Source: Spirochaetia bacterium (GTDB taxonomy: Bacteria; Spirochaetota; Spirochaetia; SZUA-6; Bin103). From it: a stretch of 64,000 nucleotides of DNA. Positions 1 to 24,806 of the stretch are shown here, in pieces. Numbering within the stretch: position 1 is the stretch's first letter; each line of letters starts with the position of its first letter. The DNA lies in the NCBI GenBank assembly GCA_965203055.1, contig OZ241863.1:2976001-3040000 (forward strand), read 5' to 3'. Below the pieces are notes generated by a model. The model was not told where the DNA came from. It did no database searches and saw only the letters and a program-made list of their open reading frames with translations. The translations under genes and the position numbers were made by a program.

Positions 1-141
1 GTGCTGATCGGGGTCCTGGGGGAGTACCTGGGACGCGTGTACGGGGAAGTGAAGCGGCGCCCGCTCTATCTGGTCAGGGAACGACTGGGATTTCCGGCTG
101 CCCGCGCCGCGCCGCGCCGCGCGCCGGAGGGCGGCGCGTAG
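1..141 (+). CDS. 3' end of a GT2 polyprenyl-phosphate glycosyltransferase (GtrB/ArnC-like), partial
   Basis: Frame 1 translates as [30 protein letters not shown]...GA with TAG at 139-141. GEY.GR.Y.EVK.RP.Y is the typical GtrB/YfdH C-terminus. Not in the ORF track. Confidence 0.85.
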
Positions 142-190
142 TCTGCAGCTCCACGCCGGGAGGGCCGGCTTGGCATGTGGCCGCGCCGGG

Positions 191-1180
191 TCACGGCCGG
201 CGCGCGGCGTTGCCTGATACCCGGTCGAGGAGCTCGGCTCCGGTCTCGCACTCGATGATCCAGACGCCGGCCTGCGCCAAGCGGTCCGGGTCGGCGGTCC
301 GCTCCAGGAGCACTGCCAGCCGATGCGCGGTGACGTCGTCGAACTTTCGCGCCGCCTGCCGGCACAGCAGCGCGCGTTCCGCGGCCCGGCCTCCGTGCGC
401 CACGCCGCGCTCGAAGACCAGGCGCCGTTGCGACCGCAGCAGCGGATCGTGATCCGGCCCGGTTCCCTCCCGCTCGCCAAGCACCGTTCCCACCCGCTCC
501 AGCACCGCGCTGGTCTGCGCCGACAGCATCGGTTCGTTCAACGCCGCGTGGATCTCCTCCGCCGTCCATCCCGGAAACGCGCGGCTCTCCGGCGCCGTCC
601 GGTACGCGCCGTCTTCCAGCACGTGGATCGTCAGCCCCGGCCGCCGGCTCCGCGGGCGGCTCGGCGCGCTCTCGTCCGGCACCTCCACCCATACCTCCGG
701 GAAGCCCCACGACTCATACAGCGCCAGCTTGCCGCGCCGCACGTCGGTGGTGTGGTCCACTTCCAGCACCACGTCGGGATAGTCATCCACGCCGATCACC
801 ATCGCCGACGGCCCCGGCAGGCGGGCGCTGCCGGGATGCAGGTATACCGACTCGTCGGCCTGCATGATGCTGCGCGGCCCGTCGTGCTGCCGCAGGTCCA
901 TCGAGCCGTAGCTTTCGATGGGCGCGCCGCGCAGCTGCGCGATCCGCTCGGTGAGCCGGGTCAGGCGGCCGGAGGGCCGTTCGTGGTAGGGGCTGGCCGG
1001 TTCGCAGATCCAGGCGGTCTCGGTAGCGCCGTCCCAGTACTCCAACCGCTGGTCGCTGTGTTCGAGCTCGTCTGCCGGCAGGTGGACCGGCGTGCAGCCG
1101 GGGAACTCGGGCGCCGGCGGCGCGGCCTCGGTGTCGGAGCGCGGCCCGACGGCAGTCTTGGAAGTCTTGGTGATTGCCAT
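191..1180 (-). CDS. Uma2-family (restriction endonuclease-like) protein with a C-terminal helical tail resembling Rpn/DUF4351
   Basis: Motifs MQADESVYL and PDVVLEVD...KLALYESWGFPEVW. Start moved to ATG 1180 because a promoter sits just upstream. Confidence 0.8.
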   Translation of the reverse strand: MAITKTSKTAVGPRSDTEAAPPAPEFPGCTPVHLPADELEHSDQRLEYWDGATETAWICEPASPYHERPSGRLTRLTERIAQLRGAPIESYGSMDLRQHDGPRSIMQADESVYLHPGSARLPGPSAMVIGVDDYPDVVLEVDHTTDVRRGKLALYESWGFPEVWVEVPDESAPSRPRSRRPGLTIHVLEDGAYRTAPESRAFPGWTAEEIHAALNEPMLSAQTSAVLERVGTVLGEREGTGPDHDPLLRSQRRLVFERGVAHGGRAAERALLCRQAARKFDDVTAHRLAVLLERTADPDRLAQAGVWIIECETGAELLDRVSGNAARRP

Positions 1181-1186
1181 GGCGCC

Positions 1187-1215
1187 ACCGTACGCGGGCC
1201 GCTCCGGTCGCGCAA
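1187..1215 (-). promoter_or_regulatory. sigma70-type promoter, likely leaderless transcript for the Uma2 gene
   Basis: TTGCGC-17 nt-TACGGT-6 nt-ATG. Confidence 0.5.
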
Positions 1216-1324
1216 CCCGCGCCCCGCAGTCCGTCTCGGCGCCGCCCCGGCAGGAAGTACCACGACTGCCGCGCAGGCGCCGCCGGGCAGCACATCGTAC
1301 TCCGGAGTCGACCACGCCGGTGCT

Positions 1325-1352
1325 GGGGTGGGGCGTCAGGGGTGGGGCGTCA
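1325..1352. repeat. 14-bp direct duplication spanning the AAA gene stop
   Basis: ggggtggggcgtca x2. Confidence 0.85.
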
Positions 1353-2897
1353 GGCGCGGGCCACTTCGAAGGCGGCGATGGTGCGCGTCTCGCGGCTGAA
1401 CTCCACGCCAAGCAGGTGGATCGGTTCGCCCAGGCCGCGGTACTTGTCGGCGTAGCCGCGCGCCTGCAACTGCGCCAGCGCGGCGCCCTCCGGCGCCAGC
1501 TCCACCACCTTGAACTCGAACAGATTGACGTTGCCCCGGTACCGGACCGCCAGATCGACCCGCCCGCGGCTGCTCGAATCCTCCACCGTGACGTCCAGCC
1601 CCACCGCCGCGAACCAGGAGTAGCAGACGCTCGCGTAGTAGCCTTCGTAGCGCGCGATGTCGTTGCGCGTGTGCCACTCGTACGGGATGCCGGCGAAGAA
1701 CGCCCGGAACAGCCGCTCCAACCCGGCGAAGTCGTTCGCCGCCAACAGCCGCTCCAGTGCCGTGTCCTGTGTCAGCCGGCGCGCCGCGGCGGGCGCCAGC
1801 GCCCGCAGCAGGCGTTCGTTCAGAGCGAGCCGCACTTCGCGGTTGGGATAGCCGAGCCGGTAGCGCGGTCCGCGCGCCGAGTGCTCGACGCTGCGGATGG
1901 TGAGGTAGCCGGTCTGGAACAGCAGCGCCTCGGGCTCCATCTCGTCCACGTCGAACGCGGACAGCAGGTCGGCGCCGGCCAGCATCCCGTCCAGCTCCGG
2001 CGAGGTGACGCCGCGCTCGATCAGCGCGTCGATCAGAAACGACGGCGTACCGGTCTCGAACCAGTACGCCGCGAACGTCCGCTCGTCGAACAGCAGCAGG
2101 ATGTCGAACGGGTTGTAGACCCGCTCCTCGCCCAGCCAGTTATAGCCGTTGTACCAGTCGCGGATCTCGTCCCGGTCCAGACCCGGCAACTCCGCCGCGA
2201 ACACCGTGTCGAGGTCGGCCTCGGTATAGCCGCAGATCGCCGAGTAGCGTGGCGACAGCGTGATGTCCTTGAGGTTGTTGAGGCCGGAAAAGACGCTGAC
2301 CTTGGAGAACTTGCTCACGCCGGTCAGCAGCGTGAAGCGGATGTGAGCGTCGGCGAACTTCACGTTCGAGTAGAGGCTGCGCAGCAGGCGGCGGTTGGCG
2401 GCCGCGATCGCCGGCATCCCCAGTGCGTCCAGGATCGGCTTGTCGTACTCGTCGATCAGCACTGCCACCCGCCTGCCGGCGCTCCGGTGCAAGCCCTCGA
2501 GCAGGCGCCGGAAGCGGATCGGCGCGGAAGCGCTGCGCGCGCTCGCGCCGGCGGCCGTTTCGAGCGCCGTCAACTGATCGGCCAAGTCCTCTTGCAGACC
2601 GTCCGGCGCCGCGTAGTCGCCGCCGCCGAAGTCGAGGCGCACCACCGGGCGGCGTTTCGACCACTCCCAGTGGTCGTGCACGTGCAGGCCGCGGAACAGT
2701 TCCTCGCTGCCCTCGAACAGTTCCTTGATGGTGTCCAGCAGCAGGCTCTTGCCGAAGCGGCGCGGGCGCGACAGGAAGTAGTGCTTTCCCTTCCGCGTCA
2801 AGCGGAGGATGAAGGCGGTCTTGTCGACGTAGTAGCAGTCGTCCTCGCGGATCTCGCGGAAGGTCTGGATGCCGATCGGCAGCTTCCGGCGCGTCAT
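1350..2897 (-). CDS. AAA-ATPase-like / PD-(D/E)XK nuclease protein, copy 1
   Basis: KLPIGIQTF..YYVDKT, SRPRRFGKS (P-loop), LIDEYDKP, WYNGY, YNPF, WFETGTP and C-terminal GRVDL...FEFK. Confidence 0.9.
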   Translation of the reverse strand: MTRRKLPIGIQTFREIREDDCYYVDKTAFILRLTRKGKHYFLSRPRRFGKSLLLDTIKELFEGSEELFRGLHVHDHWEWSKRRPVVRLDFGGGDYAAPDGLQEDLADQLTALETAAGASARSASAPIRFRRLLEGLHRSAGRRVAVLIDEYDKPILDALGMPAIAAANRRLLRSLYSNVKFADAHIRFTLLTGVSKFSKVSVFSGLNNLKDITLSPRYSAICGYTEADLDTVFAAELPGLDRDEIRDWYNGYNWLGEERVYNPFDILLLFDERTFAAYWFETGTPSFLIDALIERGVTSPELDGMLAGADLLSAFDVDEMEPEALLFQTGYLTIRSVEHSARGPRYRLGYPNREVRLALNERLLRALAPAAARRLTQDTALERLLAANDFAGLERLFRAFFAGIPYEWHTRNDIARYEGYYASVCYSWFAAVGLDVTVEDSSSRGRVDLAVRYRGNVNLFEFKVVELAPEGAALAQLQARGYADKYRGLGEPIHLLGVEFSRETRTIAAFEVARA

Positions 2898-2979
2898 GGC
2901 GCGTCTCGATGCGGCGCGGTCACGGTCCGGCCATGATAGCCGGAACGGTACGCGGCCATCATCCGCTCATCCGCCGGCC
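2898..2979. repeat. Conserved intergenic linker L, copy 1, with inverted repeat
   Basis: ATGATAGCCG (2933-2942) ... CGGCCATCAT (2953-2962), followed by ccgctcatccgcc. Confidence 0.8.
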
Positions 2980-5115
2980 TTACGGCTCTCCCGCGCTGCG
3001 GCGGGGCGCTGCAATCTCCGCGCTCCAGAGTTGTCCTTCGCCCCTGATGAACTGCCCGGTACGGATGCGCGTGAACTGGTAGTCGGGCAGGACCACGACC
3101 GCCGCGCAGGCGCCGCCGCGGCGCGCGCCGCCCTCCCAGAGATAGAAGTCCAGGTTGTCGAACCCCTGCTCCCGCTGGAAGGCGGGCAGGTCGGCGGCGT
3201 CCGCCGGGAAGAGGTGCAGGAAGAACCGCTCCGCATCCAGGTCGTCCACCGTGCAGGCATCCTTGACGTAGGTCAGGGTGTCGCCGTCGAGATACAGGTC
3301 GAAGTCCGATTCCGCGACCGGTTCCCGCGACCGTGCGGAGCGGTACGCTTCCCGGAAGTCCGCAACGGTCGCGGCGTCGAGCTGCGCCGGGTCGAGGGCC
3401 GCCACCGTGAGGATGGTGTTGTGGTAGATGCGGCGCGCATGGACCACGGACGAGAACGGGAAGCTGCGGCGATGGTTGGCGCGCGCATGATTGGCGATGA
3501 CGTAGTGCCGCTCCGACGCGTCATCCACGCGGTTGGTGAAGACGATTCGGCGCCGCTCGGCCGCGGGAAGCAGCCGCGCGGTGCGGGTGGCCAGGGTCAC
3601 CGGCAGGCGCGCGGCCTGCCGTTCGGCGCCGGCGGGATTGCCGCTCCCGCGGTTTGCCAGGACGACGTGGACGGTGCCCTGCGGATGGCGCCGGAGCAGA
3701 TATTCCAGCCCTTCGCGGTACGCCGGTCCGTAGTAGTCGAGGTCGTACCGGGTGCGCAGGTATTCCGGGGTACGGCGGTCGACCAGGAAGTTGAAGTACC
3801 GCATCTGATACGGGTGGATCAGCGCCATCTCGACCGCCGCCGCGGCCACGCCCGCCGCGGCCAGCGCGTAGATGGCGCGCCGCAGCCACCGCCGCCGGCC
3901 CGCCGCGGCCAGCAGCCGGCGCAGGCCGTAGACCGCCAGCAGGCAGAGCGGCGCGGCCAGGAAGTACATGTGCCGCCAGCCGTGGTTGAGGGTGGAGTTC
4001 ACTACGATGACGGCCGCGATCGACAGCGCCGGACAGGCGACCAGCAGCACCCCGAAGCGCGTGACGGGGGTGTTGCGAAGGACCTCGCGCGGGCGCGTCA
4101 GACCGCGTCCGAGCACGGCGCCGATCCCGGCCAGGCTCAGCAGCAGCGCCGCCGGCGGGGTGGTGATCGCCATCCAGGTCGGCAGGTAGTGCGGCGGAAT
4201 CTCCGGCCAGCGCACCAGCTCGCCCTGAAACAGCGTCGCGCCGCGCACCGGATGTTGCGCCAGCGTGACGACGGCGTCGATCAGCTCCGGCGGGTTGCGC
4301 CAGAGATGGGGCGAGACCGCGTACAGGCTCGCCGCCGCAGCCAGCAGGAACGCCCCGGCGGTCGCCAGCACCCGCCGCCGCTCCGCCGGCCCGCTTGCCT
4401 GGATCAGGTCGAGCGCCCGCAGCGCCGGCACCGCGGCGCACAGCAAGAGGCCCATGACGCGCAGGTTGACCAGCACGCCCACGCCCAGCCCGCAGAGCGC
4501 GAACGCGCCGGCGGTGTCGCGGCGGAAGGCGCGCTGCGTCAGGTAGAGCGCGATCATGAACATCGCCAGGAAGGGGATGTCCTTGGTGTTGAAGAAGGAG
4601 TGGGCGTACAGGCGGGGCTGCAGCAGGAACAGCAGCAGGGCGAACAGCGCCAAGCGGCGGTCGCGGAACAGGCGATAGGTCAGCAGCCAACAGAAGAAGC
4701 CGCCGGTGAGGAAGAACAGGTGGGTCAGCAGGTGGCGGCTGAGGTAGACGGCGCGGCTGTCGGTGAGGCCGAGCAGCCGTTCGACCAGGATCAGCGGCGC
4801 TTCGAACGCGACTCCGTAGTACCGGTTGTGGTCGGCCGGCAGGGCGCCGGCGTCGCCCAGCGCGTAGGCGATCGCCGCCAAGCCGATGTTGCGTTGCCAA
4901 ACCTCGTCCCATCCTAAGCCGTAGTCGTCGAGGACGGCGGCGCCCACTGCCGCGAACGCGATGAGCGCAATGATCGCGTCCCGCCCGGGCAGCCGCCGAG
5001 GCGTATCCTGCGGCGGTTGCGGCGGTCGGCGGTTCAGTGCGATGGCAGGCCCCCTGCTTCGACCACGCCGGCGCTGTGGCGGGGCGTCAGGCGCGGGCCA
5101 CCTCGAAGGTGGCAA
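2980..5115 (-). CDS. GT-C fold (PMT/ArnT-like, GT39/GT83-type) membrane glycosyltransferase GT1 with one C-terminal module; true start uncertain
   Basis: DDYGLGWDE after the first TM helix, many TM helices, HSFFNTKDIPF and GWRHMYF motifs. The TTG at 5115 lies inside an AAA remnant; an in-frame ATC at 5043 follows a GGGGG run. Confidence 0.75.
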   Translation of the reverse strand: MPPSRWPAPDAPPQRRRGRSRGPAIALNRRPPQPPQDTPRRLPGRDAIIALIAFAAVGAAVLDDYGLGWDEVWQRNIGLAAIAYALGDAGALPADHNRYYGVAFEAPLILVERLLGLTDSRAVYLSRHLLTHLFFLTGGFFCWLLTYRLFRDRRLALFALLLFLLQPRLYAHSFFNTKDIPFLAMFMIALYLTQRAFRRDTAGAFALCGLGVGVLVNLRVMGLLLCAAVPALRALDLIQASGPAERRRVLATAGAFLLAAAASLYAVSPHLWRNPPELIDAVVTLAQHPVRGATLFQGELVRWPEIPPHYLPTWMAITTPPAALLLSLAGIGAVLGRGLTRPREVLRNTPVTRFGVLLVACPALSIAAVIVVNSTLNHGWRHMYFLAAPLCLLAVYGLRRLLAAAGRRRWLRRAIYALAAAGVAAAAVEMALIHPYQMRYFNFLVDRRTPEYLRTRYDLDYYGPAYREGLEYLLRRHPQGTVHVVLANRGSGNPAGAERQAARLPVTLATRTARLLPAAERRRIVFTNRVDDASERHYVIANHARANHRRSFPFSSVVHARRIYHNTILTVAALDPAQLDAATVADFREAYRSARSREPVAESDFDLYLDGDTLTYVKDACTVDDLDAERFFLHLFPADAADLPAFQREQGFDNLDFYLWEGGARRGGACAAVVVLPDYQFTRIRTGQFIRGEGQLWSAEIAAPRRSAGEP
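5011..5035. repeat. Degenerate remnant (3 units) of the GGCGGTTC octamer at the GT1 5' end
   Basis: cggcggttg cggcggt cggcggttc. Confidence 0.55.
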
Positions 5116-5258
5116 GGGCGCGTCTCGCGGCTGAGCGCCCGCAGCAGTTCGTTCAGAGCGAGCCGCACCTCGCGGTTGGGATAGCCGAGCCGGTAGAGCG
5201 CCTCGCCGTCGTCATCTTCGACGATGATGCGGTCGTCGCTCGCCACCGCGTGCTTCAT
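5087..5258 (-). pseudogene. Collapsed AAA-nuclease remnant (unrelated N-terminus + internal piece + C-terminal piece)
   Basis: MKHAVASDDRIIV joined to EDDDGEALYRLGYPNREVRLALNE-LLRAL, joined to SRETR...FEVARA-stop DNA. TACACT lies 6 nt upstream of the ATG. Confidence 0.8.
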
Positions 5259-5304
5259 GCCTGCAGTGTATCCTGCCCGATGGCGACAAGGAAGCAGGCT
5301 TCCG

Positions 5305-7677
5305 TCACTCGCTGCCGGCTGACCGCCCGTTCGGCTGCGCCGCGGCCGGCGCCGCAATCTCCGCACTCCAGAGTTCGCCCTCCCCGCTGATGAACTGGCC
5401 GGTGCGGAGGCCGGCGATCGCGTAGTCCGGCAACGGCGCCAGGATCACGCATGCTTCGCCGAGCAGCGCTCCGTATTCCCGGTAGTCGAAGCCGACGTTC
5501 TCGAAGCCGTGCGGCCGGTGTTGCGGGGACAGGTCCCGCGCGTCCGCCGGGATCACGTGCAGGAAGAACCGTTCCCGCACGTCCTCCTCGGTGCACGGCT
5601 CCTTGTGGTACGCCAGCACCCTTCCGGCGTGATAGAGGTCGAAGACCCCGCGGGCCGGTGCTCCCCAGGCGCCGGAGCGGATCGCGGCGCGCGCCTCCCA
5701 ATAGCGCTGCGCGGTCGGTCCGGCCGGGAACTCCACGCTCCAGAGCTGCCGCCCGCCCACCCGAACGAACTGCCCGGTGCGGATGCGCGTGAACTCGTAG
5801 TCGGGCAGTACCACGACCGCCATGCAGGCGCCGTCGAGCCGCGCGCCGCCCTCGTAGAAGTAGAAATCCAGGTTGTCGAACCCCTGCTGAGACGCGGGAA
5901 GGTCGGCGGCGTTCGCCGGGAAGACGTGCAGGAAGAACTTCTCCTGCACGTCTTCCGGCGCGCATCGGTTCTTGACGTAGGTGAGCGTCGCGCCGTCGAG
6001 ATACAGGTCGAAGTGCGAGCTGGCGGTCGGCTCCCGCGACCGTGTGGAGCGGTACGCTGACCGGAATGCGGCTGCGGTATCGTCTCCCGGCGACGGGTCG
6101 AGTCTGGCAACCGTGAGGATGACGTTGTGGTAGATGCGGCGCGCGTATACCACGGACGAAAACGGGAATCTGCGGCGCTGATCGGCGAGCGTAGCGCTGG
6201 TGATGACGTAGTAATGGCTCGCTACGTCGGGCACGCGGTCGGCGATGACGATTCTGCGCCGCTCGGCCGCGGGGAGCAGTCCCAGATTTCTGATCAAGGT
6301 CGGCTGAGGTGGGACGACGTGGACGGTTGCCGTCGGGTGGTGCCGGAGCAGATACTCCAGCCCATCCCGTTGCGCCGTTCCATAGTGGTTCATCTCGTAG
6401 CGGGTGCGCAGGTATTCGGGGGTACGGCGGTCCACCAGGAAGTTGAAGTATACGTGCTGATAGGGATGCAGGCGCGCGAGGTCGACCGCCATGCCGGCCA
6501 GCGCCGCCGCCGCCAGCGCGTAGACGCCGCGCCGCAGCCACGGCCGGCGCGCGGCTGCCAGCAGCCAGCGCATGCCGTAGACCGCCAGCAGGCACAGCGG
6601 CGCGGCCAGGAAGTACATGTGCCGCCAGCCGTGGTAGAGGTTGGAGTTGACCACGATGACGGCCGCGATCGACAGCGCCGGACAGGCAACCAGCAGCACC
6701 CCGAAGCGCGTGACGGGGGTGTTGCGGAGCGCGGAGCGCGGGCGGATCATGCCGCGCCCGAGCACGGCGCCGAACCCGGCCAGGCTCAGCAGCAGCGCCG
6801 CCGGCGGCGTGGTGATCGCCATCCAGGTGGGCAGGTAGTGCGGCGGAATCTCCGGCCAGCGCACCAACTCGCCCTGAAACAACATCCAAGCGCGGATGGG
6901 ATGGTGCGCCAGCGTGACGACGGCGTCGATCAGCTCGAACGGGTTGCGCCAGAGATGGGGCGAGACCGCGTACAGGGCCGCCGCCGCGGCCAGCAGGAAC
7001 GCGCCGGCGGTCGCCAGCGCGCGCCGCCGCTCCGCCGGCCCGCCGGCCCGCAGCAGATCAAGCGCTCGCAGCGCCGGCACCGCCGCGCACAGCAGCAGGC
7101 CCATGACCCGCAGGTTGACCAGCACGCCCACGCTCAGCCCGCAGAGCGCGAACGCGCCGGCGGTGTCGCGGCGGAAGGCGCGCTGCGTCAGGTAGAGCGC
7201 GATCATGAACATCGCCAGGAAGGGGATGTCCTTGGTGTTGAAGAAGGAGTGCGCGTACAGGCGGGGCTGCAGCAGGAACAGCAGCAGGGCGAACAGCGCC
7301 AAGCGGCGGTCGCGGAACAGGCGGAAGGCGAGCAGCCAGCAGAAGAAGCCGCCGGTGAGGAAGAACAGGTGAGTCAGCAGGCGGCGGCTGAGGTAGACGG
7401 CGCGGCTGTCGGTGAGGCCGAGCAGCCGCTCGACCAGGATCAGCGGCGCTTCGAATGCGGCTCCGTAGTACCGGTCATGGCCTGCCGGCAGGGCGCCGGT
7501 TGCGCCCTGCGCGTAGGCGATCGCCGCTTGGCCCAGGCGGCGCTGATAGGGCGTATCCGACGCCACGCCGTAGTCGTCGAGGACGGCGGCGCCCACCGCT
7601 GCGAACGCGATGATCGCGATGAGCGCGTCACGCCACGGCAAGCCGGCGGTTCGGCGGTTCGACAACAGGATTGCCAC
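5305..7677 (-). CDS. GT-C membrane glycosyltransferase GT2 with two C-terminal modules
   Basis: Close paralogue of GT1 with DDYGVASDT. The N-terminus MAILLSNRRTAGLPWRDAL carries 2 in-frame octamer units (7645-7660). Confidence 0.8.
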   Translation of the reverse strand: MAILLSNRRTAGLPWRDALIAIIAFAAVGAAVLDDYGVASDTPYQRRLGQAAIAYAQGATGALPAGHDRYYGAAFEAPLILVERLLGLTDSRAVYLSRRLLTHLFFLTGGFFCWLLAFRLFRDRRLALFALLLFLLQPRLYAHSFFNTKDIPFLAMFMIALYLTQRAFRRDTAGAFALCGLSVGVLVNLRVMGLLLCAAVPALRALDLLRAGGPAERRRALATAGAFLLAAAAALYAVSPHLWRNPFELIDAVVTLAHHPIRAWMLFQGELVRWPEIPPHYLPTWMAITTPPAALLLSLAGFGAVLGRGMIRPRSALRNTPVTRFGVLLVACPALSIAAVIVVNSNLYHGWRHMYFLAAPLCLLAVYGMRWLLAAARRPWLRRGVYALAAAALAGMAVDLARLHPYQHVYFNFLVDRRTPEYLRTRYEMNHYGTAQRDGLEYLLRHHPTATVHVVPPQPTLIRNLGLLPAAERRRIVIADRVPDVASHYYVITSATLADQRRRFPFSSVVYARRIYHNVILTVARLDPSPGDDTAAAFRSAYRSTRSREPTASSHFDLYLDGATLTYVKNRCAPEDVQEKFFLHVFPANAADLPASQQGFDNLDFYFYEGGARLDGACMAVVVLPDYEFTRIRTGQFVRVGGRQLWSVEFPAGPTAQRYWEARAAIRSGAWGAPARGVFDLYHAGRVLAYHKEPCTEEDVRERFFLHVIPADARDLSPQHRPHGFENVGFDYREYGALLGEACVILAPLPDYAIAGLRTGQFISGEGELWSAEIAAPAAAQPNGRSAGSE

Positions 7678-12104: not shown

Positions 12105-12110
12105 GCCGCC

Positions 12111-12286: not shown

Positions 12287-12289
12287 GAC

Positions 12290-12395: not shown

Positions 12396-12460
12396 GCACG
12401 TCACTTTGTCACTTTGGTGGGGGCTGACCGCCCGTTCGGCTGCACGCCGGCGGGCGCCAG

Positions 12461-12823: not shown

Positions 12824-12946
12824 TCACGGCCCCTGCGCCGCGGCCGGCGCCTTGATCTCCGCGCTCCAGAGCTGGCCCTCCCCGCTGATGAACTGGCCGG
12901 TGCGGAGGCCGGCGATCGCGTATTCCGGCAACGGCGCCAGCCTCAT
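12824..12946 (-). pseudogene. 3'-terminal remnant of a GT gene, now a 40-aa mini-ORF
   Basis: MRLAPLPEYAIAGLRTGQFISGEGQLWSAEIKAPAAAQGP-stop, near-identical to the end of GT3. Confidence 0.8.
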
Positions 12947-13003
12947 GGTTTCCTGACCGCCGCGCAGCGCCGTCGAACGGCACGCCGGCGCTGGGGCGGG
13001 GCG

Positions 13004-14613: not shown

Positions 14614-16947
14614 TCATTCGCCGGAGTCGGCCTCACGGCCCTGCGCCGCGGCCGGCGCCGCAATCTCCGCGCTCCAGAGCTGGCCTTCGCCGCTGATGAA
14701 CTGGCCGGTGCGGAGGCCGGCGATCTCATACTTCGGCAACGGCGCCAGCGCCACGCACGCCGCGCCGAACAGCGCCCCGTGTTCCCGGTAGTCGAAGTCC
14801 CGGTTCTCGAAGCCGCGCAGCCGGTCTTGCGGGGACAGAGCCCCGGCGTCCGCGGGAATCACGTGCAGGAAGAACCGCGCCCGCAGGTCCTCCGCCGCGC
14901 ACGGCTCCTTGTGATACGCCAGCACCGTTCCGTTCAGATAGAGGTCGAACGCTCCGCGCGCGGCCGGCGCTCCCCAGGCGCCGGAGCGGATCGCGGCGCT
15001 CGCATCCCGATAGCGCTGCGCGGTCGGTCCGGCCGCGAACTCGACGCTCCACAGTTGGGGCCAGCCGCGGGTTTCGAACTGCCCGGTACGGATGCGCGTG
15101 AACTCGTAATCGGGCAGTGCCACGACCGCCACGCAGGCGCCGTCGATCCGCGCGCCGCCCTCCCAGAGATAGAAGTCCCAGTTGTCGAACCCCGACTCCC
15201 GCTGGTGGGCGGGCAGGTCGGCGGCATCCGCGGGGAAGACGTGCAGGGAGAACTTCTTCTCATCCAGGTCCTCCACCGGGCAGCTATCCTTGACATAGGT
15301 CAGCGTGGTGCCGTCGAGATACAGGTCGTAGTCCGAACTGGCGACCGGCTCCCGCGACCGTGCGGAGCGGTACGCTTCCCGGAAGTCGGCCACGGTCGCA
15401 GCGTCGAGCTGCGCCGGGTCGAGGGCGGCCACCGTGAGGATGGTGTTGTGGTAGATGCGGCGCGCATAGACCGCGGGCGAGAACGGGAAGCTGCGGCGGT
15501 GATTGGCACGAGTATGATTGGTGATGGCGTAGTGATGGGTCGCCGCGGCGTCATGCGCGCGGTCGGAGATGACGATTCTGCGGCGCTCGGCCGCCGGGAG
15601 TATGCGCAGATTGGCGCTGACGAGCGCGTATCTCCAGTTCTTCGCCGCAACGACGTGGACCGTTTCCTGCGGGTGGCGGCGGAGCAGATGCTCCAGCCCC
15701 TCGCGGTAGGCCGGCCCCCAGTACTCCATCTCGTAGCGGGTGCGCAGGTATTCGGGGGTGCGGCGGTCGACCAGGAAGTTGAAGTAGACCATCTGATGGG
15801 GATGGATCAGCGCCATCTCGACCGCGGCCGCGGCCAAGCCCGCCGCGGCCAGCGCGTAGATGCCGCGCCGGAGCCACCGCCGCCCGCCCCGCGGCGGCAG
15901 CAGCCGGCGCAGGCCGTAGACCGCCAGCAGGGCCAGCGGCGCGGCCAGGAAGTACATCTGCCGCCAGCCGTTGTAGAGATTGGCGTCGACCGCGATGACG
16001 GCCGCGACCGGCAGCGCCAGGCAGGCGACCAGCAGCGCCCCGAAGCGCGTGACGGGGGTGTTGCGGAGGACCTCGCGCGGGCGCGTCAGGCTGCGCGCGA
16101 ACACGGCGACGATTCCGGCCAGGCTCAGCAGCAGCGCCGCCGGCGGCGTGGTGATCGCCATCCAGGTCGGCAGGTAGTGCGGCGGAACCTCCGGCCAGCG
16201 CACCATTTCGCCTTGAAACAGTGTTGGAATAGGGGAGGGATGGCGCGCGAACGTGACGACGGCGTCGATCAGCTCAAACGGGTCGCGCCAGAGATGGGGC
16301 GAGACCGCGTACAGGGCCGCCGCCGCGGCCAGCAGGAACGCCCCGGCGGTCGCCAGCGCGCGCCTCCGCTCCGCCGGCCCATGCGCCTGCAGCAGGTCGA
16401 GCGCCCGCAGCGCCGGCACCGCGGCGCACAGCAGCAGGCCCATGACGCGCAGGTTGACCAGCACGCCCACGCCCAGCCCGCAGAGCGCGAACGCCCCGGC
16501 GGTGTCGCGGCGGAAGGCGCGCTGCACCAAGTAGAGCGCGATCATGAACATCGCCAGGAAGGGGATGTCCTTGGTGTTGAAGAAGGAGTGGGCGTACAGG
16601 CGGGGCTGCAGCAGGAACAGCAGCAGGGCGAACAGCGCCAGCCGGCGGTCGCGGAACAGGCGGAAGGCGAGCAGCCAGCAGAAGAAGCCGCCGGTGAGGA
16701 AGAACAGGTGGGTCAGCAGGTGGCGGCTGAGGTAGACGGCGCGGCTGTCGGTGAGGCCGAGCAGCCGTTCGACCAGGATCAGCGGCGCCTCGAACGCGAC
16801 TCCGTAGTACCGGTTGTGGTCGGTCGGCAGGGCGCCGGCGTCGCCCAGCGCGTAGGCGATCCGCGTCTGGCCGATGCGGCGCTGGTGGTGCTCATCCCAC
16901 GATATGCCGTAGTCGTCGAGCACGGCGGCGCCCAGCGCCGCGAACAC
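14614..16947 (-). CDS. GT-C membrane glycosyltransferase GT4 with two C-terminal modules; possibly phase-variable from ATG 17161
   Basis: DDYGISWDE. Homology continues in frame upstream of GTG 16947 (PWRDALIALAV) with no in-frame start codon, so the real start lies beyond the repeat. Confidence 0.8.
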   Translation of the reverse strand: MFAALGAAVLDDYGISWDEHHQRRIGQTRIAYALGDAGALPTDHNRYYGVAFEAPLILVERLLGLTDSRAVYLSRHLLTHLFFLTGGFFCWLLAFRLFRDRRLALFALLLFLLQPRLYAHSFFNTKDIPFLAMFMIALYLVQRAFRRDTAGAFALCGLGVGVLVNLRVMGLLLCAAVPALRALDLLQAHGPAERRRALATAGAFLLAAAAALYAVSPHLWRDPFELIDAVVTFARHPSPIPTLFQGEMVRWPEVPPHYLPTWMAITTPPAALLLSLAGIVAVFARSLTRPREVLRNTPVTRFGALLVACLALPVAAVIAVDANLYNGWRQMYFLAAPLALLAVYGLRRLLPPRGGRRWLRRGIYALAAAGLAAAAVEMALIHPHQMVYFNFLVDRRTPEYLRTRYEMEYWGPAYREGLEHLLRRHPQETVHVVAAKNWRYALVSANLRILPAAERRRIVISDRAHDAAATHHYAITNHTRANHRRSFPFSPAVYARRIYHNTILTVAALDPAQLDAATVADFREAYRSARSREPVASSDYDLYLDGTTLTYVKDSCPVEDLDEKKFSLHVFPADAADLPAHQRESGFDNWDFYLWEGGARIDGACVAVVALPDYEFTRIRTGQFETRGWPQLWSVEFAAGPTAQRYRDASAAIRSGAWGAPAARGAFDLYLNGTVLAYHKEPCAAEDLRARFFLHVIPADAGALSPQDRLRGFENRDFDYREHGALFGAACVALAPLPKYEIAGLRTGQFISGEGQLWSAEIAAPAAAQGREADSGE

Positions 16948-16980
16948 CGCCAGCGCGATGAGCGCGTCACGCCACGGCGT

Positions 16981-17139
16981 GTTCGGCGGTTCGGCGGTTC
17001 GGCGGTTCGGCGGTTCGGCGGTTCGGCGGTTCGGCGGTTCGGCGGTTCGGCGGTTCGGCGGTTCGGCGGTTCGGCGGTTCGGCGGTTCGGCGGTTCGGCG
17101 GTTCGGCGGTTCGGCGGTTCGGCGGTTCGGCGGTTCGGC
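16981..17139. repeat. Simple sequence repeat (GTTCGGCG)~20
   Basis: 159 bp of the same octamer. Confidence 0.95.
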
Positions 17140-17141
17140 AC

Positions 17142-17250
17142 AGGATGCCTCGTATTGCCATAAGGTGTCAACCTACTCGGCATTTTCATTTGCTTTTGCT
17201 GCTGCATTTTGCTGCTTGCCTTGCCGCACGTAACCTCTTCCTCGAACACC
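17142..17250 (-). promoter_or_regulatory. A-rich upstream element U with TTGACA, upstream of GT4
   Basis: Second copy of 12290-12395. Confidence 0.6.
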
Positions 17251-17311
17251 GGCGGTTGCCTTGAACTGCTCTACTTTGCCGTCACCCGGTGGGGACTGGC
17301 CGCTCGTTCGG

Positions 17312-19246
17312 CTACTCGCCGGCCGGCACCGCAATCTCCGCGCTCCAGAGCCGCCCTCCGCCGGCGCTGAACTGGCCGGTCCGGACGTGGGAGATCTCAT
17401 ACTCCGGGAGGGTCGCGGCCACCAGGCAGGCGCCGTCCCAGAACACGCCGCGCGGCCGTTCATCGAAATGAAAGTCGAGATTGTCGAATCCCTGCTCGCG
17501 GCTGCCGGAGGGCAGATCGTCTACGGCGATCGGAACGACGTGCAGAAAGAAGCGCGCCCGGACATCCCGCGGCGCGCAGGGTTCCTTCACGTATACCAGC
17601 CGGTCCCCTGCCCGATACACGTCGAACGCCCCGCCGGCGGCGAGCTGCCGGCCGTCCAGGGCCGCCGCCAGCTCTTCGAACCGCGCCCGTTCCTTGGCCA
17701 GGTAGTAGTCCTTCTCGAACGTCGCGGCGCGCGCGTGCGCGGGCGCCGCCGCCGGCGGCCGCAGCATGGTTTCGCCCATGATCGCCCCGATGCCGCCGTA
17801 GGCTCGATAGCGCGTCGGCAAGGGCCGATCCGCATGCAATGGCAGGTTATCGCCTCGGAACACTTCGTTGCCGGCGGCGTCCACCTCCACGATCGTGTCA
17901 TGGAAGCTGATCAGGGTATTGCCGCTGCGCAGCCGGTACGCGCTGCCCTTGCCCCTCGTGTAGATGTCCGGCGTCGGCCGGTATTCCCACACTTTCACCG
18001 CAGTGCCGGCCGCCTCGTCCAGCCGCAGCTCCAGCGCGCGCGAGTAGGCGCCGCCCTCCGAATCGGGCCGCCCCCAGCCGTTGTCGAACAGCAGAACGTT
18101 GCCGTTGCCGAGCTGCGCCGCCGTGTGCTGCCCGTAGAACCGGTCGTTCGGGTCCGGGAACCGGTAATCGCTGTCCGGCCCGTGCAGTTGCCACTCGATC
18201 GCCCGCAAGTCGGCGCTGAGCGAGACCACCTGATTGCGCACGCGGGACGACAGGATGACGTTGCCGCGCGGACCGACGCTCACCGAGTTGAGGCCCGTCC
18301 ACTGGAAGACGGCGTTGTTTGATCTCGTTCTCGTATCGCGCAGTGCCGGGTCCAGCAGGTCCCAGGCGTCCTTCGAGTCCCAGACCTGCTCGAAGTGTCC
18401 GCTTTCCCGGTCATAGACGCGCAGATTGTCGACCCCGAACGCAGCTTCCGCCGGCCCGCCGTTCGCCGAGTCGTCGAAGACGACGGACTTCCGGGTCAGG
18501 TAGATCACCCGGCCATCGGCGAGCACGGTGAGCTCATGGTGGGGATGCCCCGCGGGGCCGTCCCGCTCGAACCGGTTGACCATTGCTCCCAATGGGGTGA
18601 TCTCGACCATGCTGTGATATACGAAGAGCAAGTTGCCGTCGGAAAGCTGCGCGATGGGGCCGCCGAACCCCCCTTCATGTTCATGGTACCAGACTATTCC
18701 ACCCACCTCGTCCCAGAAGACGTAGTACCCGCGCGGGTAGTCGGACAGGATGAGCGGCTGCGAGCTCCTGCCGCGCACCTGCAACGGAATGGCGGCGAGG
18801 GGCAGCGGCAGCGGTCCGGTGGTGAACCGGCCGTCCGGCCCGGCGGCCGCATCCGCATCCGCGCCGTCCAGCGCGGCCTCGTCCGTCACGGAGCCGTTCA
18901 CCACGAAGATGGTGTAGTCGTAGGTCGTCTCCGGGCGCAGCCTGACGACCGGGATGGCGTGCGCCGCGCCGGGTTCGCTCAGCGGCGTGCGGTAGCGGCC
19001 GGCCTGCGGGTTGTCGTACTCGACGAACACCCGCGCGGCGCGGGCCAGCGCCACCCGCACCTCGACGATCAGCGCGTTGCGCTCGCTGAACGAGGCGTCG
19101 TGCCGCAGGACGGCGGGCGCGTCCGCGGACGCCGGCGCCGCGCCGAACACGATAAACGCAGCCGCCAGCGCCGGCACCAGGCTAGACCGACCATACGGCG
19201 GTCGACGATCTAGCGTCACGCCGGGCGCCGTCAAGATCGATTTCAT
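17312..19246 (-). CDS. Arylsulfotransferase (ASST)-like secreted protein 2 with C-terminal module
   Basis: Paralogue of 7795-9693: PHHE, WTGLNSV, SSRVRNQV, FYGQHTA, LLFDNG, plus a signal-like hydrophobic segment. Confidence 0.8.
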   Translation of the reverse strand: MKSILTAPGVTLDRRPPYGRSSLVPALAAAFIVFGAAPASADAPAVLRHDASFSERNALIVEVRVALARAARVFVEYDNPQAGRYRTPLSEPGAAHAIPVVRLRPETTYDYTIFVVNGSVTDEAALDGADADAAAGPDGRFTTGPLPLPLAAIPLQVRGRSSQPLILSDYPRGYYVFWDEVGGIVWYHEHEGGFGGPIAQLSDGNLLFVYHSMVEITPLGAMVNRFERDGPAGHPHHELTVLADGRVIYLTRKSVVFDDSANGGPAEAAFGVDNLRVYDRESGHFEQVWDSKDAWDLLDPALRDTRTRSNNAVFQWTGLNSVSVGPRGNVILSSRVRNQVVSLSADLRAIEWQLHGPDSDYRFPDPNDRFYGQHTAAQLGNGNVLLFDNGWGRPDSEGGAYSRALELRLDEAAGTAVKVWEYRPTPDIYTRGKGSAYRLRSGNTLISFHDTIVEVDAAGNEVFRGDNLPLHADRPLPTRYRAYGGIGAIMGETMLRPPAAAPAHARAATFEKDYYLAKERARFEELAAALDGRQLAAGGAFDVYRAGDRLVYVKEPCAPRDVRARFFLHVVPIAVDDLPSGSREQGFDNLDFHFDERPRGVFWDGACLVAATLPEYEISHVRTGQFSAGGGRLWSAEIAVPAGE

Positions 19247-19255
19247 CGTTGCGGG

Positions 19256-19285
19256 ATTCTACGCGCGCGGTTGCGCGCCGGACAA
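19256..19285 (-). promoter_or_regulatory. sigma70-type promoter for ASST2
   Basis: TTGTCC-18 nt-TAGAAT-9 nt-ATG. Confidence 0.5.
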
Positions 19286-19362
19286 CCGCCACGCCAGCCC
19301 TCATGGTTTCCTGACCGCCGCGCAGGCGCCGTCGAACGGCACGCCGGCGCTGGGGCGGGGCG

Positions 19363-20910
19363 TCAGGCGCGGGCCACCTCGAAGGCGGCGATGGTGCGCG
19401 TCGCGCGGCTGAACTCCACGCCGAGCAGGTGGATCGGTTCGCCCAGGCCGCGGTACTTCTCCGCGTAGCCGCGCGCCCGCAACTGCGCCAGCGCCGCCCC
19501 GTCGGGCTCCAGCTCCACCACCTTGAACTCGAACAGATAGACGTTGCCCCGGTACCGCACCGCCAGATCGACCCGCCCGCGGCTGCTCGAATCCTCCACC
19601 GTGACGTCCAGCCCCACCGCCGCGAACCAGGAGTAGCAGACGCTCGCGTAGTAGCCCTCGTAGCGCGCGATGTCGTTGCGCGTGTGCCACTCATACGGGA
19701 TGCCGGCGAAGAACGCCCGGAACAGCCGCTCCAGTCCGGCGAAGTCGTTCGCCGCCAGCAGCCGCTCCAACGCCGTGTCCTGCGCCAGCCGGCGCGCTGC
19801 TGCGGGCGCCAGCGCCCGCAGCAGGCGTTCGTTCAGAGCGAGCCGCACTTCGCGGTTGGGGTAGCCGAGCCGGTAGCGCGGTCCGCGCGCCGAGTGCTCG
19901 ACGCTGCGGATGGTCAGATAGCCGGTCTGGAACAGCAGCGCCTCGGGCTCCATCTCGTCCACGTCGAACGCGGACAGCAGCTCGCCGCCGGCCAACATGC
20001 CGTCCAGCTCGGGCGATGCGACGCCGCGCTTGATCAGGATGTCGATCAGAAACGACGGCGTACCGGTCTCGAACCAATGGGCGGCGAATTCCCGGCGGTC
20101 GAACAGCAGCAGGATGTCGAACGGGTTGTAGACCCGATCGTCACCGCGCCAGTTGTAGCCGTTGTACCAATCGCGGATCTCCTCCCGGTCCAGCCCCGGC
20201 AACTCCGCCGCGAACACCGTGTCGAGGTCGGCCTCGGTGTAGCCGCAGATCGCCGCATAGCGCGGATCCAGCGTGATGTCGATCAGATTGTTGAGGCCGG
20301 AGAAGACGCTGACCTTGGAGAACTTGCTCACCCCGGTCAGCAGCGTGAAGTGGATGTGGGCGTCGGCGAACTTCACGTTCGAGTACAGGCTGCGCAGCAG
20401 GCGGCGGTTGGCGGCCGCGATCGCCGGCGTCCCCAGCGCGTCCAGGATCGGCTTGTCGTACTCGTCGATCAGCACCGCTACCCGCCGGCCGGCGCTCCGG
20501 TGCAACTCCTCCAGCAGGCGCCGGAAGCGGATCGGCGCGGAGGCGCTGCGCGCGCTCGCGCCGGCGGCCGTCTCGAGCGCCGTCAACTGGTCGGCCAAGT
20601 CTTCTTGCAGGCCGTCCGGCGCCGCGTAGTCGCCGCCGCCGAAGTCGAGGCGAACCACCGGGCGGCGTTTCGACCACTCCCAGTGGTCGTGCACGTGCAG
20701 GCCGCGGAACAGATCCTCGCTGCCCTCGAACAGTTCCTTGATGGTGTCGACCAGCAGGCTCTTGCCGAAGCGGCGCGGGCGCGACAGGAAGTAGTGCGTG
20801 CCTCCCCGTACCAGGCTGAGGATGAAGGCGGTCTTGTCGACGTAGTAGCAGTCATCCTTGCGGAGCTTGCGGAAGGTCTGGATGCCGGTCGGCAGCTTCC
20901 TCCTCATCAT
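19363..20910 (-). CDS. AAA-ATPase-like / PD-(D/E)XK nuclease protein, copy 3
   Basis: MMRRKLPTGIQTF... 515 aa; start set by alignment with copies 1 and 2. Confidence 0.9.
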   Translation of the reverse strand: MMRRKLPTGIQTFRKLRKDDCYYVDKTAFILSLVRGGTHYFLSRPRRFGKSLLVDTIKELFEGSEDLFRGLHVHDHWEWSKRRPVVRLDFGGGDYAAPDGLQEDLADQLTALETAAGASARSASAPIRFRRLLEELHRSAGRRVAVLIDEYDKPILDALGTPAIAAANRRLLRSLYSNVKFADAHIHFTLLTGVSKFSKVSVFSGLNNLIDITLDPRYAAICGYTEADLDTVFAAELPGLDREEIRDWYNGYNWRGDDRVYNPFDILLLFDRREFAAHWFETGTPSFLIDILIKRGVASPELDGMLAGGELLSAFDVDEMEPEALLFQTGYLTIRSVEHSARGPRYRLGYPNREVRLALNERLLRALAPAAARRLAQDTALERLLAANDFAGLERLFRAFFAGIPYEWHTRNDIARYEGYYASVCYSWFAAVGLDVTVEDSSSRGRVDLAVRYRGNVYLFEFKVVELEPDGAALAQLRARGYAEKYRGLGEPIHLLGVEFSRATRTIAAFEVARA

Positions 20911-20995
20911 GGGCGCGTCTTGGTGCGGCGCGGTCACGGCCCGGCCATGATAGACTGAACGCCGCGCGGCTATCATCCGCTCATCCGCCCGGCTT
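20911..20995. repeat. Linker L (imperfect inverted repeat)
   Basis: ATGATAGACT (20947-20956)...CGGCTATCAT (20967-20976). Confidence 0.8.
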
Positions 20996-21544
20996 TCATG
21001 GCCCCTGCGCCGCGGCCGGCGCCGCAAGCTCCGCGCTCCAGAGCTGGCCTTGGCCGCTGATGAACTGGCCGGTGCGGAGGCGGGCGATCCCATACTCCGG
21101 CAACGGCGCCAGCGCCACGCACGCCGCGCCGAGCCGCGCCCCGTGTTCCCGGTAGTCGAAGTCCCGGTTCTCGAAGCCGTGCGGCCGGTCTTGCGGGGAG
21201 AGGTCGCCGGCGTCCGCCGGAATCACGTGCAGGAAGAACCGCGCCCGCAGGTCCTCCGCCGCGCACGGCTCCTTGTGATATGCCAGCGCCGTTCCGTTCA
21301 GATAGAGGTCGAACGCTCCGCGCGCGGCCGGCGCTCCCCAGGTACCGGAGCGGATAGCGGCGCGCGCCTCCCGATAGCGCTGCGCGGTCGGTCCGGCCGC
21401 GAACTCCATGCTCCACAGTTGGGACCGGCCCCGCGCAGCGAGTTGCCCGGTACGGATGCGCGTGAATTCGTAGTCGGGCAGTGCCACGACCGCCACGCAG
21501 GCGCCGTCGAGCCGCATGCCGCCCTCCCAGAGGTAGAAGTCCAA
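20996..21544 (-). pseudogene. 3' fragment of a GT4-like gene (about 1.5 C-terminal modules), 5' part missing
   Basis: DFYLWEGG...LWSAELAAPAAAQGP is nearly identical to the GT4 C-terminus. Homology stops abruptly at ~21543, where GC drops. Confidence 0.85.

Positions 21545-22208: not shown

Positions 22209-24806
<2,598 letters not shown>

Follow-up and report, generated by a model that had tools for sequence, protein, structure and literature searches.

The stretch of DNA analysed here (hereafter the window) comprises 64,000 nt from the genome of a Spirochaetia bacterium (contig OZ241863.1 of assembly GCA_965203055.1, positions 2,976,001 to 3,040,000; genome of 4.56 Mb in a single contig, 95.9% complete, referred to as G000). 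Its first 21.5 kb hold part of an array of paralogous genes for membrane glycosyltransferases (GTs) of the GT-C type and for arylsulfotransferases (ASSTs), in some of which long 8-nt repeats lie just inside the gene. We think it probable, with some reserve, that this is a contingency locus by which an envelope glycoconjugate would be glycosylated and, probably, sulfated in the periplasm, and that it is carried on a horizontally exchanged island of at least ~94 kb. The interpretation follows the three-component GT-C logic described in passages of Kelly et al. 2024 (PMC11127046), multiplied into alternative paralogues. The original prediction, made from the letters of the window, had proposed contingency switching, paralogue divergence, recombination and a GtrB-type sugar donor, all of which are supported; its view of the interleaved AAA-nuclease genes as part of the system and its bounds for a locus of five to six iterations are not.

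Window genes were assigned to families with Pfam, gene fragments were located by tblastn with the window proteins, and tandem repeats were called by TRF. The DNA has ~70% G+C, and third-position GC outlines a single long series of minus-strand genes between 21.5 and 0.2 kb. The predicted minus-strand order and families were confirmed (four PMT_2, two ASST and three AAA/PD-(D/E)XK genes in Pfam), the predicted GT tails, AAA pseudogene, AAA remnant and AAA start were every one recovered by tblastn, and both predicted simple-repeat tracts were called by TRF as perfect or near-perfect 8-nt arrays. The genes and repeats on which the interpretation turns are the following, in window coordinates:

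1..141, plus strand: 3' end of a GtrB/PgfS/ArnC-type polyprenyl-phosphate glycosyltransferase gene (GT2 family, 338 aa; Pfam, NCBIfam), which starts 900 nt before the window
2980..5115, minus strand: GT1, PMT_2-type GT-C with a single C-terminal beta-sandwich domain (Pfam)
5305..7677, minus strand: GT2, GT-C with two beta-sandwich domains (Pfam); N-terminus VAILLSNRRTAGLPWRD, with only 2 octamer units (unexpanded)
7798..9693 (Pfam scan: 7795-10284), minus strand: ASST1, arylsulfotransferase with one beta-sandwich domain (Pfam PF05935)
9777..12101 (Pfam scan: 9774-12104), minus strand: GT3 body, PWRD to stop codon (Pfam PMT_2)
12110..12287, minus strand: intragenic repeat of GT3, (CCGAACCG)22, which would encode (PNRRTAEP)n (TRF: 22.2 copies, 100% matches)
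12288..12420, minus strand: "U" region of GT3, a conserved AT-rich 5' region including the start codon (MAIRGILS; alignment)
14617..16977 (Pfam scan: 14614-16947), minus strand: GT4 body, with transmembrane (TM) helices to residue ~391, a periplasmic region and two beta-sandwich domains (Pfam, hydropathy)
16975..17139, minus strand: intragenic repeat of GT4, (CCGAACCG)20.5 (TRF: 20.5 copies, 99% matches)
17140..17290, minus strand: "U" region of GT4 (alignment)
17315..19246 (Pfam scan: 17312-19246), minus strand: ASST2, arylsulfotransferase with a signal peptide and one beta-sandwich domain (Pfam PF05935)

The U regions upstream of both repeats align with each other, their final ~110 nt being nearly identical. 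The N-terminus of ASST2, MKSILTAPGVTLDRRPPYGRS, holds one heptamer unit (unexpanded) followed by the signal peptide, and a promoter-like TTGTCC-18-TAGAAT ends 10 nt upstream of its ATG.

The array does not end at the window start, and the predicted five to six iterations bounded by GtrB and clpB proved too small an estimate: it reaches 28 kb beyond the window start, outside the window, and spans 50 kb in all (genome 2947791-2997619), within an island of ~94 kb. A second array of 33 kb lies 170 kb away on the opposite strand (genome 2782393-2815200). Together the two arrays of G000 contain nine full-length GT genes plus fragments, seven ASST genes (two more occur elsewhere in the genome), and seven intact AAA genes, two frameshifted copies and further fragments. 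All 12 PMT_2 matches above cut-off in the genome are in or beside them. Other array genes encode a Wzy_C protein, two Calx-beta proteins, GT2-family and Sulfotransfer_2 proteins (the latter of the type dependent on 3'-phosphoadenosine 5'-phosphosulfate, PAPS), a UbiA-family protein and an HNH protein; three types of transposase and one pyrF-like open reading frame (ORF) are also found, and the island carries ABC transporter and epimerase genes as well.

The octamer tracts sit inside genes, just downstream of a conserved ATG (MAIRGILS or MATQGILS), which we take as the real start because the unexpanded paralogues GT2 and ASST2 fix both start and frame. In GT_A2, a gene of the 33-kb array with 4+28 units, the ATG (MATQGILS) is in frame with the entire 887-aa GT (297 nt from ATG to PWRD; ON), and the tract encodes (PNRRTAEP)n ahead of the first membrane helix. 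The ATGs of GT3 (12307-12309) and GT4 (17159-17161) are +1 out of frame, with 208 and 184 nt, respectively, to PWRD (OFF); reading from either terminates at a TGA inside the PWRD codons, and GT4 offers no alternative in-frame start before the middle of its first TM helix. Likewise, the (ACCGCCG)12 heptamer ASST of the 33-kb array shares its ATG with unexpanded ASST2 and runs into a stop (OFF). The tracts of the 33-kb array lie at genome 2802640-2802899 and 2793543-2793626. At the orthologous loci the relative G011 has tracts of 11, 20 and 15 units where G000 has 22, 20.5 and 12, all three G011 copies being OFF, which brings the tally over both genomes to one gene ON (GT_A2) and six OFF among the seven octamer or heptamer genes. 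The evidence for tract-length variation is a comparison between genomes, taken from assemblies. The predicted switching by simple-sequence repeats is supported by intragenic repeats, by the presence of in-frame and out-of-frame states, and by unit numbers that differ between genomes. A different reading of the U region, as a promoter (TTGACA-18-CATCCT) with the repeat in the 5' untranslated region, was rejected on three grounds: the ATG keeps its frame despite an indel upstream, the GT_A2 repeat is in frame, and the unexpanded paralogues share the start codon.

Hypermutable tracts of another kind are found among the relatives. The GT4 query matched in six of 40 relatives, four of which (G010, G011, G012 and G015) possess full-length GT arrays and were used for comparison, while matches in the other two were domain-only or weak. 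G011 has the same array type as G000, with matching order over ~45 kb that includes the AAA pseudogene and both repeat tracts (ASST2-GT4-AAA2-AAA pseudogene-GT3-ASST1-GT2 is common to both), and the array of G015 contains six GT genes. G010 and G012 share a second array type with at least 15 GT and four ASST genes, which has no long 7- or 8-nt repeats and instead carries poly-G tracts inside one ASST and three GT genes. The two arrays are 99.1-99.9% identical over 47 kb, and a 23.6-kb aligned block has only two gap openings; the poly-G lengths in G010 and G012 are 20/18, 17/15, 9/9 and 41/21 nt, and three of the four tracts differ in predicted ON/OFF state. From these sequences it appears that hypermutable tracts arose independently in the two array types.

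The enzyme families fit a periplasmic glycosylation pathway. The GtrB-like gene matches Pfam Glycos_transf_2 (E 6e-32) and, over its full length and below the equivalog cut-offs, NCBIfam PgfS (E 2.7e-81) and ArnC (E 5.4e-46), which bears out the prediction of a GtrB-type donor synthase beside GT-C enzymes. PMT_2 is found in all four window GTs at 36-39 bits against a cut-off of 26; their hydropathy peaks are consistent with about nine TM helices, and a DD motif follows the first of them. A search of the ESM Atlas yielded generic PMT_2 clusters only. The two ASSTs of the window score 99.1 and 85.9 bits with PF05935 against a cut-off of 24.2, and alignment to residues 430-491 of PDB 3ELQ and to 9KF4 keeps a QH...FDN motif. 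A strict pattern of this motif matches in six of the nine ASST copies of G000. Going by its position in E. coli AssT, the His of the QH motif is presumably the catalytic one.

GTs and ASSTs of the arrays have a 108-aa C-terminal domain in common. It ends every full-length GT in two copies, apart from the single copy in GT1 of the window; array ASSTs end in one copy and the heptamer-repeat ASST of the 33-kb array in two. A subset of the loci compared holds 123 copies, and D10, C25, D29, F34, P40, F60, G66, C73 and P80 are invariant in an alignment of 45 sequences. An AlphaFold2 model (pLDDT 94) is an all-beta sandwich. Pfam and NCBIfam contain no model for it, with only a chance Subtilosin_A match below cut-off; Foldseek returned nothing from PDB at E <= 1e-3, and VIA-align (best Z 7.5) retrieved generic FN3/Ig/CBM-like folds and no specific relative. 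A profile of the domain found 2294 cluster representatives at E <= 1e-3 among 1.84 billion proteins, with up to 10 copies per protein. At 38-54% identity it occurs in species-representative metagenome-assembled genomes (MAGs) of Binatia, Entotheonella, Gammaproteobacteria, Pseudomonadales, Azotimanducaceae, Dehalococcoidia, Caldilineaceae, Tepidiformaceae, Aldehydirespiratoraceae, Gemmatimonadota, Latescibacterota and Nitrospirales, often in tandem arrays of genes; this list of lineages resembles a typical sponge consortium. Among 68 such proteins scanned, five carry PMT_2, seven a glucose/sorbosone dehydrogenase (GSDH) domain with or without cytochrome c, and one a sulfatase domain, while the remaining 55 gave nothing in Pfam at 1e-5. 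Close homologues of the GT core (E 1e-109 to 1e-153) are encoded by six ORFs from four of those lineages; no ASST or AAA homologues were found in the 51 loci of other lineages.

The GT paralogues are mosaics of a homogenised core and a divergent periplasmic part. Codons ~50-200, which span the membrane and catalytic core, are 93-99% identical among paralogues (third positions 92-98% in the codon alignment), whereas codons 400-675 of GT3 share only 45-66% of nucleotides with other GTs (third positions 38-60%), the periplasmic part of GT3 being the most divergent among the window GTs. Since by hydropathy the last TM helix ends at residue ~391, the variable part is periplasmic. These codon-wise identities support the predicted divergence of paralogues around a homogenised core. 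Concerted evolution fast enough to erase orthology was rejected as an explanation, because, in trees of the core as well as of the variable region, GTs of G000 still group with their G011 orthologues, GT4 being the only exception. Over at least 1.4 kb the GT4 of G011 is 100% identical to paralogue B1, compared with 89-100% in the corresponding pair of G000, while its flanks (the 5' region and the downstream AAA gene) match the positional orthologue in G000; judged by these alignments, the stretch is a gene-conversion tract.

Gene content has changed as well. Between GT2 and GT1, G011 has one more ASST, the junctions at which AAA genes sit are not the same in the two genomes, an orphan palindrome of the AAA genes (L, described below) remains in G000 at a junction where G011 has an AAA gene, and GT1 of G000 is without the second beta-sandwich domain of its G011 orthologue. 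The start of ASST1 is chimeric, an AAA start codon plus MTRRKLP being fused in frame to the ASST signal-peptide core, so that the L palindrome at 9729-9757 would drive ASST1. Window 19328-21543 is a gap-free inverted copy, 97.2% identical, of genome 2804705-2806920 in the 33-kb array (GT_A2 tail and AAA gene), and repeated segments within arrays are 88-97% identical over 2-4 kb. The conversion tract, the gains and losses, the inverted copy and the differences at junctions agree with the expansion and contraction through AAA and GT cores that had been predicted, and the array is not invariant in relatives, given that G000 and G011 differ in gene content.

The island itself has moved. G011 4014001-4108400 (~94 kb, array included) is 90-99.6% identical to G000, the high identity stopping at the GT 3' fragment of window 20996-21547. 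In G011 this segment is bordered by FlhA, a sigma factor, PBP2 and M23 peptidases at one end and by SurE and SecA at the other; these flanks are only 65-76% identical to their counterparts in the G000 backbone at 2.37-2.41 Mb, and clpB of the two genomes is 77% identical in nucleotides and 73% in amino acids. Because identity across the island lies far above that of flanks and clpB, we conclude that it resides at different chromosomal sites and was recently exchanged between genera. The second array type is, on the same kind of sequence comparison, likewise exchanged between genera (clpB of G010 and G012 is 76% identical in nucleotides). No tRNA was found in the two island-end loci and no integrase among the 18 ORFs at the island ends of G011.

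We propose that lipid-linked sugars made in the cytoplasm would be used in the periplasm by alternative GT-C enzymes, which share a near-identical membrane and catalytic core and differ periplasmically, so that each would act at its own position on an envelope glycan or glycoprotein; addition of sulfate would fall to the ASST paralogues. The choice of paralogue would be stochastic: some genes carry, just behind the start codon or farther inside, an expanded repeat of 8 or 7 nt (poly-G in the sister array type), in which slipped-strand gain or loss of units would turn the gene ON or OFF by changing the frame. The repertoire would be reshuffled through the AAA genes and through the GT cores, the latter 88-99% identical, by gene conversion, inversion and unequal recombination, and whole islands would move between co-resident genera. 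The AAA genes would supply homology for rearrangement and, in the case of ASST1, also promoter and start codon. Switching of this kind would presumably take place in real time, with phages or host cells as the likely selective agent.

The AAA genes and the remaining features of the region are as follows, in window coordinates:

191..1411, minus strand: Uma2-like putative endonuclease gene, 406 aa (Pfam Uma2 E 5e-10)
1350..2897, minus strand: AAA1, intact DUF1703 gene (AAA-ATPase_like and PDDEXK_9; Pfam E 2e-59 and 1e-16)
2932..2963, no strand assigned: L palindrome upstream of AAA1 (pattern search; outside the range of the promoter scan)
5133..5222, minus strand: remnant of an AAA 3' part between GT2 and GT1 (tblastn, AAA2 residues 337-367, 87% identity)
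9673-9768, minus strand: "AAA start" fragment (tblastn)
9729-9757, minus strand: L palindrome ahead of ASST1 (pattern search)
12465..12741, minus strand: AAA pseudogene, frameshifted and truncated (residues 1-90; tblastn), with an L palindrome at 12777-12807
12827..12979, minus strand: orphan GT tail covering the final ~50 codons of one beta-sandwich domain (tblastn, GT3 residues 726-776, 76% identity)
13004..14545, minus strand: AAA2, intact DUF1703 gene (Pfam), with an L palindrome/promoter at 14580-14610
19353..19421, minus strand: 5' remnant of a Uma2-like gene, downstream of AAA3 (tblastn, 23 residues at 96% identity)
19366..20910 (Pfam scan: 19363-21093), minus strand: AAA3, intact DUF1703 gene (Pfam), with an L palindrome at 20946-20977
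20996..21547, minus strand: GT 3' fragment of about two beta-sandwich domains (tblastn)
22209-24806: clpB (Pfam)

All three AAA genes of the window match PF09820 followed by PF08011 (E 1e-58 to 1e-59 and 1e-16 to 1e-19), and the AAA genes are intact, keep a GKS motif and show dN/dS of 0.2-0.5 against paralogues. The L element, GATGATAGCCG-N7-10-CGGCTATCATG, is palindromic and precedes every AAA start or remnant by 35-70 nt; the genome contains ~11 true L palindromes, all of them at AAA genes or AAA remnants, and a promoter scan of 12000-21700 matched the L sites at 12777, 14580 and 20946 to a sigma-70-like ATGATA-17/18-TATCAT. Copies of the AAA family number 2-33 per genome in 20 of 23 genomes from the same bacterial family, some of them lacking any GT array, and a close copy accompanied by its L region lies outside the arrays. 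Interleaved AAA genes are absent from the arrays of G010/G012 and G015, and the AAA protein has no match in PADLOC or PDB. Because the family is widespread with or without GT arrays and is not interleaved in the second array type, we read these genes as an independent multicopy family with its own palindromic promoter that appears to have colonised this array type and to be no obligatory partner; the prediction that AAA-nuclease genes belong to one system with the transferases is not borne out. Passages of a study of the symbiont Cardinium cCpun (PMC6387759) describe an expansion of DUF1703 with many paralogues and recombination among them, its function being left open. Domain architecture, the number of paralogues per genome, a host-associated bacterium and recombination are common to both cases. 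In the spirochete, by contrast, one subclade (77-98% identical) lies inside a transferase array with each copy behind a palindromic promoter, and no signal peptide is evident in the AAA proteins. Uma2-like genes or remnants repeatedly trail AAA genes and overlap the AAA stop (window 191-1411, where the gene overlaps the end of AAA1, and 19353-19421; G000 2960979-2962100), with three to four Uma2-like paralogues elsewhere in the genome by tblastn; AAA and Uma2-like genes may form a two-gene module.

Several other explanations have to be considered. Were the AAA genes functional partners after all, either in programmed recombination at the L palindromes or as a defence module tied to surface variation, one would account for their position at GT/ASST junctions in G000 and G011, each behind a palindrome confined to AAA genes or their remnants, for their purifying selection and for the rearrangement breakpoints that fall at them. 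We consider this very unlikely in view of the arrays that lack interleaved AAA genes, the many copies in other genomes of the same family (some without any GT match) together with the close copy and L region outside the arrays, a palindrome that reads as an ordinary sigma-70-type promoter, and the absence of a PADLOC match. An assembly artefact, in which dispersed paralogues were collapsed or chimerically joined, is hardly credible. It would be favoured by the 88-97% identity of the repeats over 2-4 kb and by the fragmentation of short-read contigs from the region, but the independently assembled G011 keeps the gene order of G000 over ~45 kb, including the pseudogene and both tracts, and G010 and G012 agree at 99% over 47 kb; the chimeric or collapsed assembly that could have undone the original prediction is accordingly not what the relatives indicate. 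The runs holding the stretch are labelled sponge metagenome and contain contigs at least 99% identical to it; short contigs from four public runs (longest piece listed 484 nt) cover 30 of 30 bins of window 1-12100, a comparison confined to that stretch without repeat tracts and silent on gene order. A scan of window 1-22000 with Rfam found no family.

A decaying array of paralogues, duplicated on a mobile island and carrying neutral microsatellites in a tolerant N-terminal segment with no adaptive switching, would explain why six of the seven repeat-bearing genes are OFF, why GT3 and the heptamer ASST have the identical OFF frame in G000 and G011, and why so many fragments, pseudogenes and transposase genes are strewn through the array. 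The OFF states and their identical frame also count against a contingency locus. Dead microsatellites, however, accumulate interruptions, whereas the tracts here are perfect (99-100% matches) and persist at orthologous sites in two genomes with differing copy numbers; behind the OFF tracts the gene bodies remain intact, with ORFs of 770-790 codons, one copy (GT_A2) is ON, and an unrelated tract type in the same families (the second array type) differs in ON/OFF state between 99% identical copies. We therefore hold decay to be distinctly improbable. Somewhat more weight, though still on the unlikely side, is due to an explanation compatible with repeat switching, namely that the domain binds a sponge-matrix or dissolved glycan and the ASSTs shuttle sulfate among sponge phenolics or sugars for nutrition or detoxification, the paralogues widening the range of substrates. 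It draws on the fusions of the domain to GSDH with cytochrome c, sulfatase and PMT_2 in at least ten other lineages, and on reports that characterised ASSTs use small phenolics. Opposed to it, random ON/OFF switching is typical of surface antigens, not of catabolism, and Wzy_C, ABC transporter, GT2-family, epimerase and UbiA genes make the island look like a locus for glycan assembly. Moreover, GT-C enzymes with polyprenyl-phosphate donors modify the cell's own envelope glycoconjugates in passages of PMC11127046. Against the contingency locus that we favour stand, besides the points shared with decay, the sugar-dehydrogenase and sulfatase fusions in other phyla, which suggest that the domain may bind a host or environmental glycan instead; a TTG directly before PWRD in GT3, which could allow expression independent of the repeat; GT-C membership at a Pfam E of about 1e-9, with zero matches of the GT profile to solved structures among PDB sequences; and zero GtrA-type flippases (PF04138) in G000, where a control matched in 8 of 14 genomes, a flippase of another type being possible. 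In addition, the assemblies are metagenomic and presumed to be long-read, and tract lengths, those of homopolymers especially, may carry consensus errors.

The contingency locus that we favour has parallels in several known systems. Simple-sequence-repeat contingency loci for surface glycans include lic, lgt and lex of Haemophilus and Neisseria and the capsule and lipooligosaccharide transferases of Campylobacter. They are alike in having a perfect repeat, its unit not a multiple of three, just inside the 5' end of a glycosyltransferase gene, where a change in unit number shifts the frame, and in having several such genes per genome that yield combinatorial surface variation. Here the genes encode periplasm-acting membrane GT-C enzymes plus members of the arylsulfotransferase family, the units are 8 and 7 nt long (rare, as judged by a literature search on octanucleotide repeats with phase variation), the peptide encoded by the repeats makes a tail that can reach 97 aa, and the paralogues stand in tandem arrays of 33-50 kb in an uncultured, sponge-associated spirochete with ~70% GC. 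The proposed phase-variable modification has a counterpart in Salmonella gtr, whose phase variation was reportedly described by Broadbent et al. in 2010; Dam/OxyR act there, and intragenic repeats are proposed here. Three-component periplasmic glycosylation, according to passages of Kelly et al. 2024 (PMC11127046), combines a GT-C enzyme with polyprenyl-phosphate donors to modify the own envelope glycoconjugates, pentofuranose systems using a UbiA-type synthase. The GtrB-type synthase adjoining GT-C genes and the UbiA-family gene in the island conform to this scheme, while nine alternative GT-C genes per genome instead of one, the failure to find a GtrA homologue and the extra C-terminal beta-sandwich domains depart from it. 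With E. coli AssT (PDB 3ELQ; 9KF4) the ASSTs share the PF05935 match, sequence similarity around the QH motif and an N-terminal signal peptide; they differ in comprising seven array paralogues plus two, in the added beta-sandwich of the array copies, in their interleaving with GT-C genes and in at least one predicted repeat-switched copy. Literature searches on phase variation in sponge spirochetes, on octanucleotide-repeat phase variation and on ASSTs in sponge symbionts, supplements aside, turned up no account of this locus; they likewise returned no report of a repeat-switched membrane GT-C or PAPS-independent sulfotransferase, and no link between ASSTs and sponge symbionts.

Further observations concern repeats and mobile sequences in these genomes. 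Perfect repeats of at least 36 nt number 10 in G000, four of them within the two arrays (~1.8% of the genome), and 41 poly-G/C tracts of 9-26 nt are spread genome-wide with none inside the arrays. At G000 1804096-1804215 a perfect (GCTCAACC)15 directly follows AAGGAG-N-ATG of a secreted-protein gene unrelated to the arrays; the gene is out of frame, with the signal peptide in another frame, and looks from its sequence like another octamer-switched secreted-protein gene. The N-terminus of GT1 has an in-frame 9-nt repeat encoding PPQ, with four units in G011 (4052930-4052965) and two in G000 (window ~4990-5010), the 9-nt unit allowing length variation without a frameshift. A pentanucleotide repeat, (CCGCG)4.2, lies at window 102-122 within the 3' end of the GtrB-like gene. 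A repeat of ~410 nt (G011 4094281-4094690) is present at more than 40 places in G000 with 82-94% identity, and looks like a miniature inverted-repeat transposable element or the end of an insertion sequence. Just past the window end, ~10 kb of G011 (4116001-4126000) are 89-98% identical to G000 3042108-3059696, compared with ~70-77% for the backbones, and this segment may be another exchanged island.

Some genes deserve mention on their own account. The pyrF-like ORF (OMPdecase, E 1e-33; G000 2952851-2953591, minus strand) lies between two array GTs beside an AAA fragment, and G011 has nothing between the orthologous GT pair. Two GT paralogues of G012 (locus positions 14418-16820 and 16900-19305) have GD in place of the otherwise invariant DD after the first membrane helix and may be catalytically altered. 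In MAGs of Dehalococcoidia and Caldilineaceae the beta-sandwich domain ends glucose/sorbosone dehydrogenases of the pyrroloquinoline quinone (PQQ) type, most of them with cytochrome c and often in tandem arrays.

A bolder extension of the contingency locus, which we regard as conceivable and worth stating although we doubt it, would make the island a traded "coat randomiser" of sponge symbionts. About 20 GT-C and sulfotransferase paralogues would be docked by the shared beta-sandwich on one envelope glycan and switched independently, giving combinatorial sugar and sulfate patterns that possibly resemble sulfated glycans of the host and would help the cell evade phages or sponge phagocytes, and the cassette of GT and beta-sandwich module would have spread through at least ten unrelated lineages as a general symbiosis factor that had so far gone unrecognised.

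Phase-variable surface glycosylation is textbook knowledge for a few cultured pathogens, and the arrays look like the same strategy in an uncultured symbiont of a marine invertebrate, on a much larger scale than in known cases, with nine GT-C and seven ASST paralogues and islands of ~94 kb shared between genera. The analysis also defines a previously unannotated extracytoplasmic domain shared by enzymes from numerous lineages that are typical of sponge consortia. Should the cell's own envelope indeed be the target, the locus would provide a testable handle on how sponge symbionts escape phages or phagocytosis by the host.

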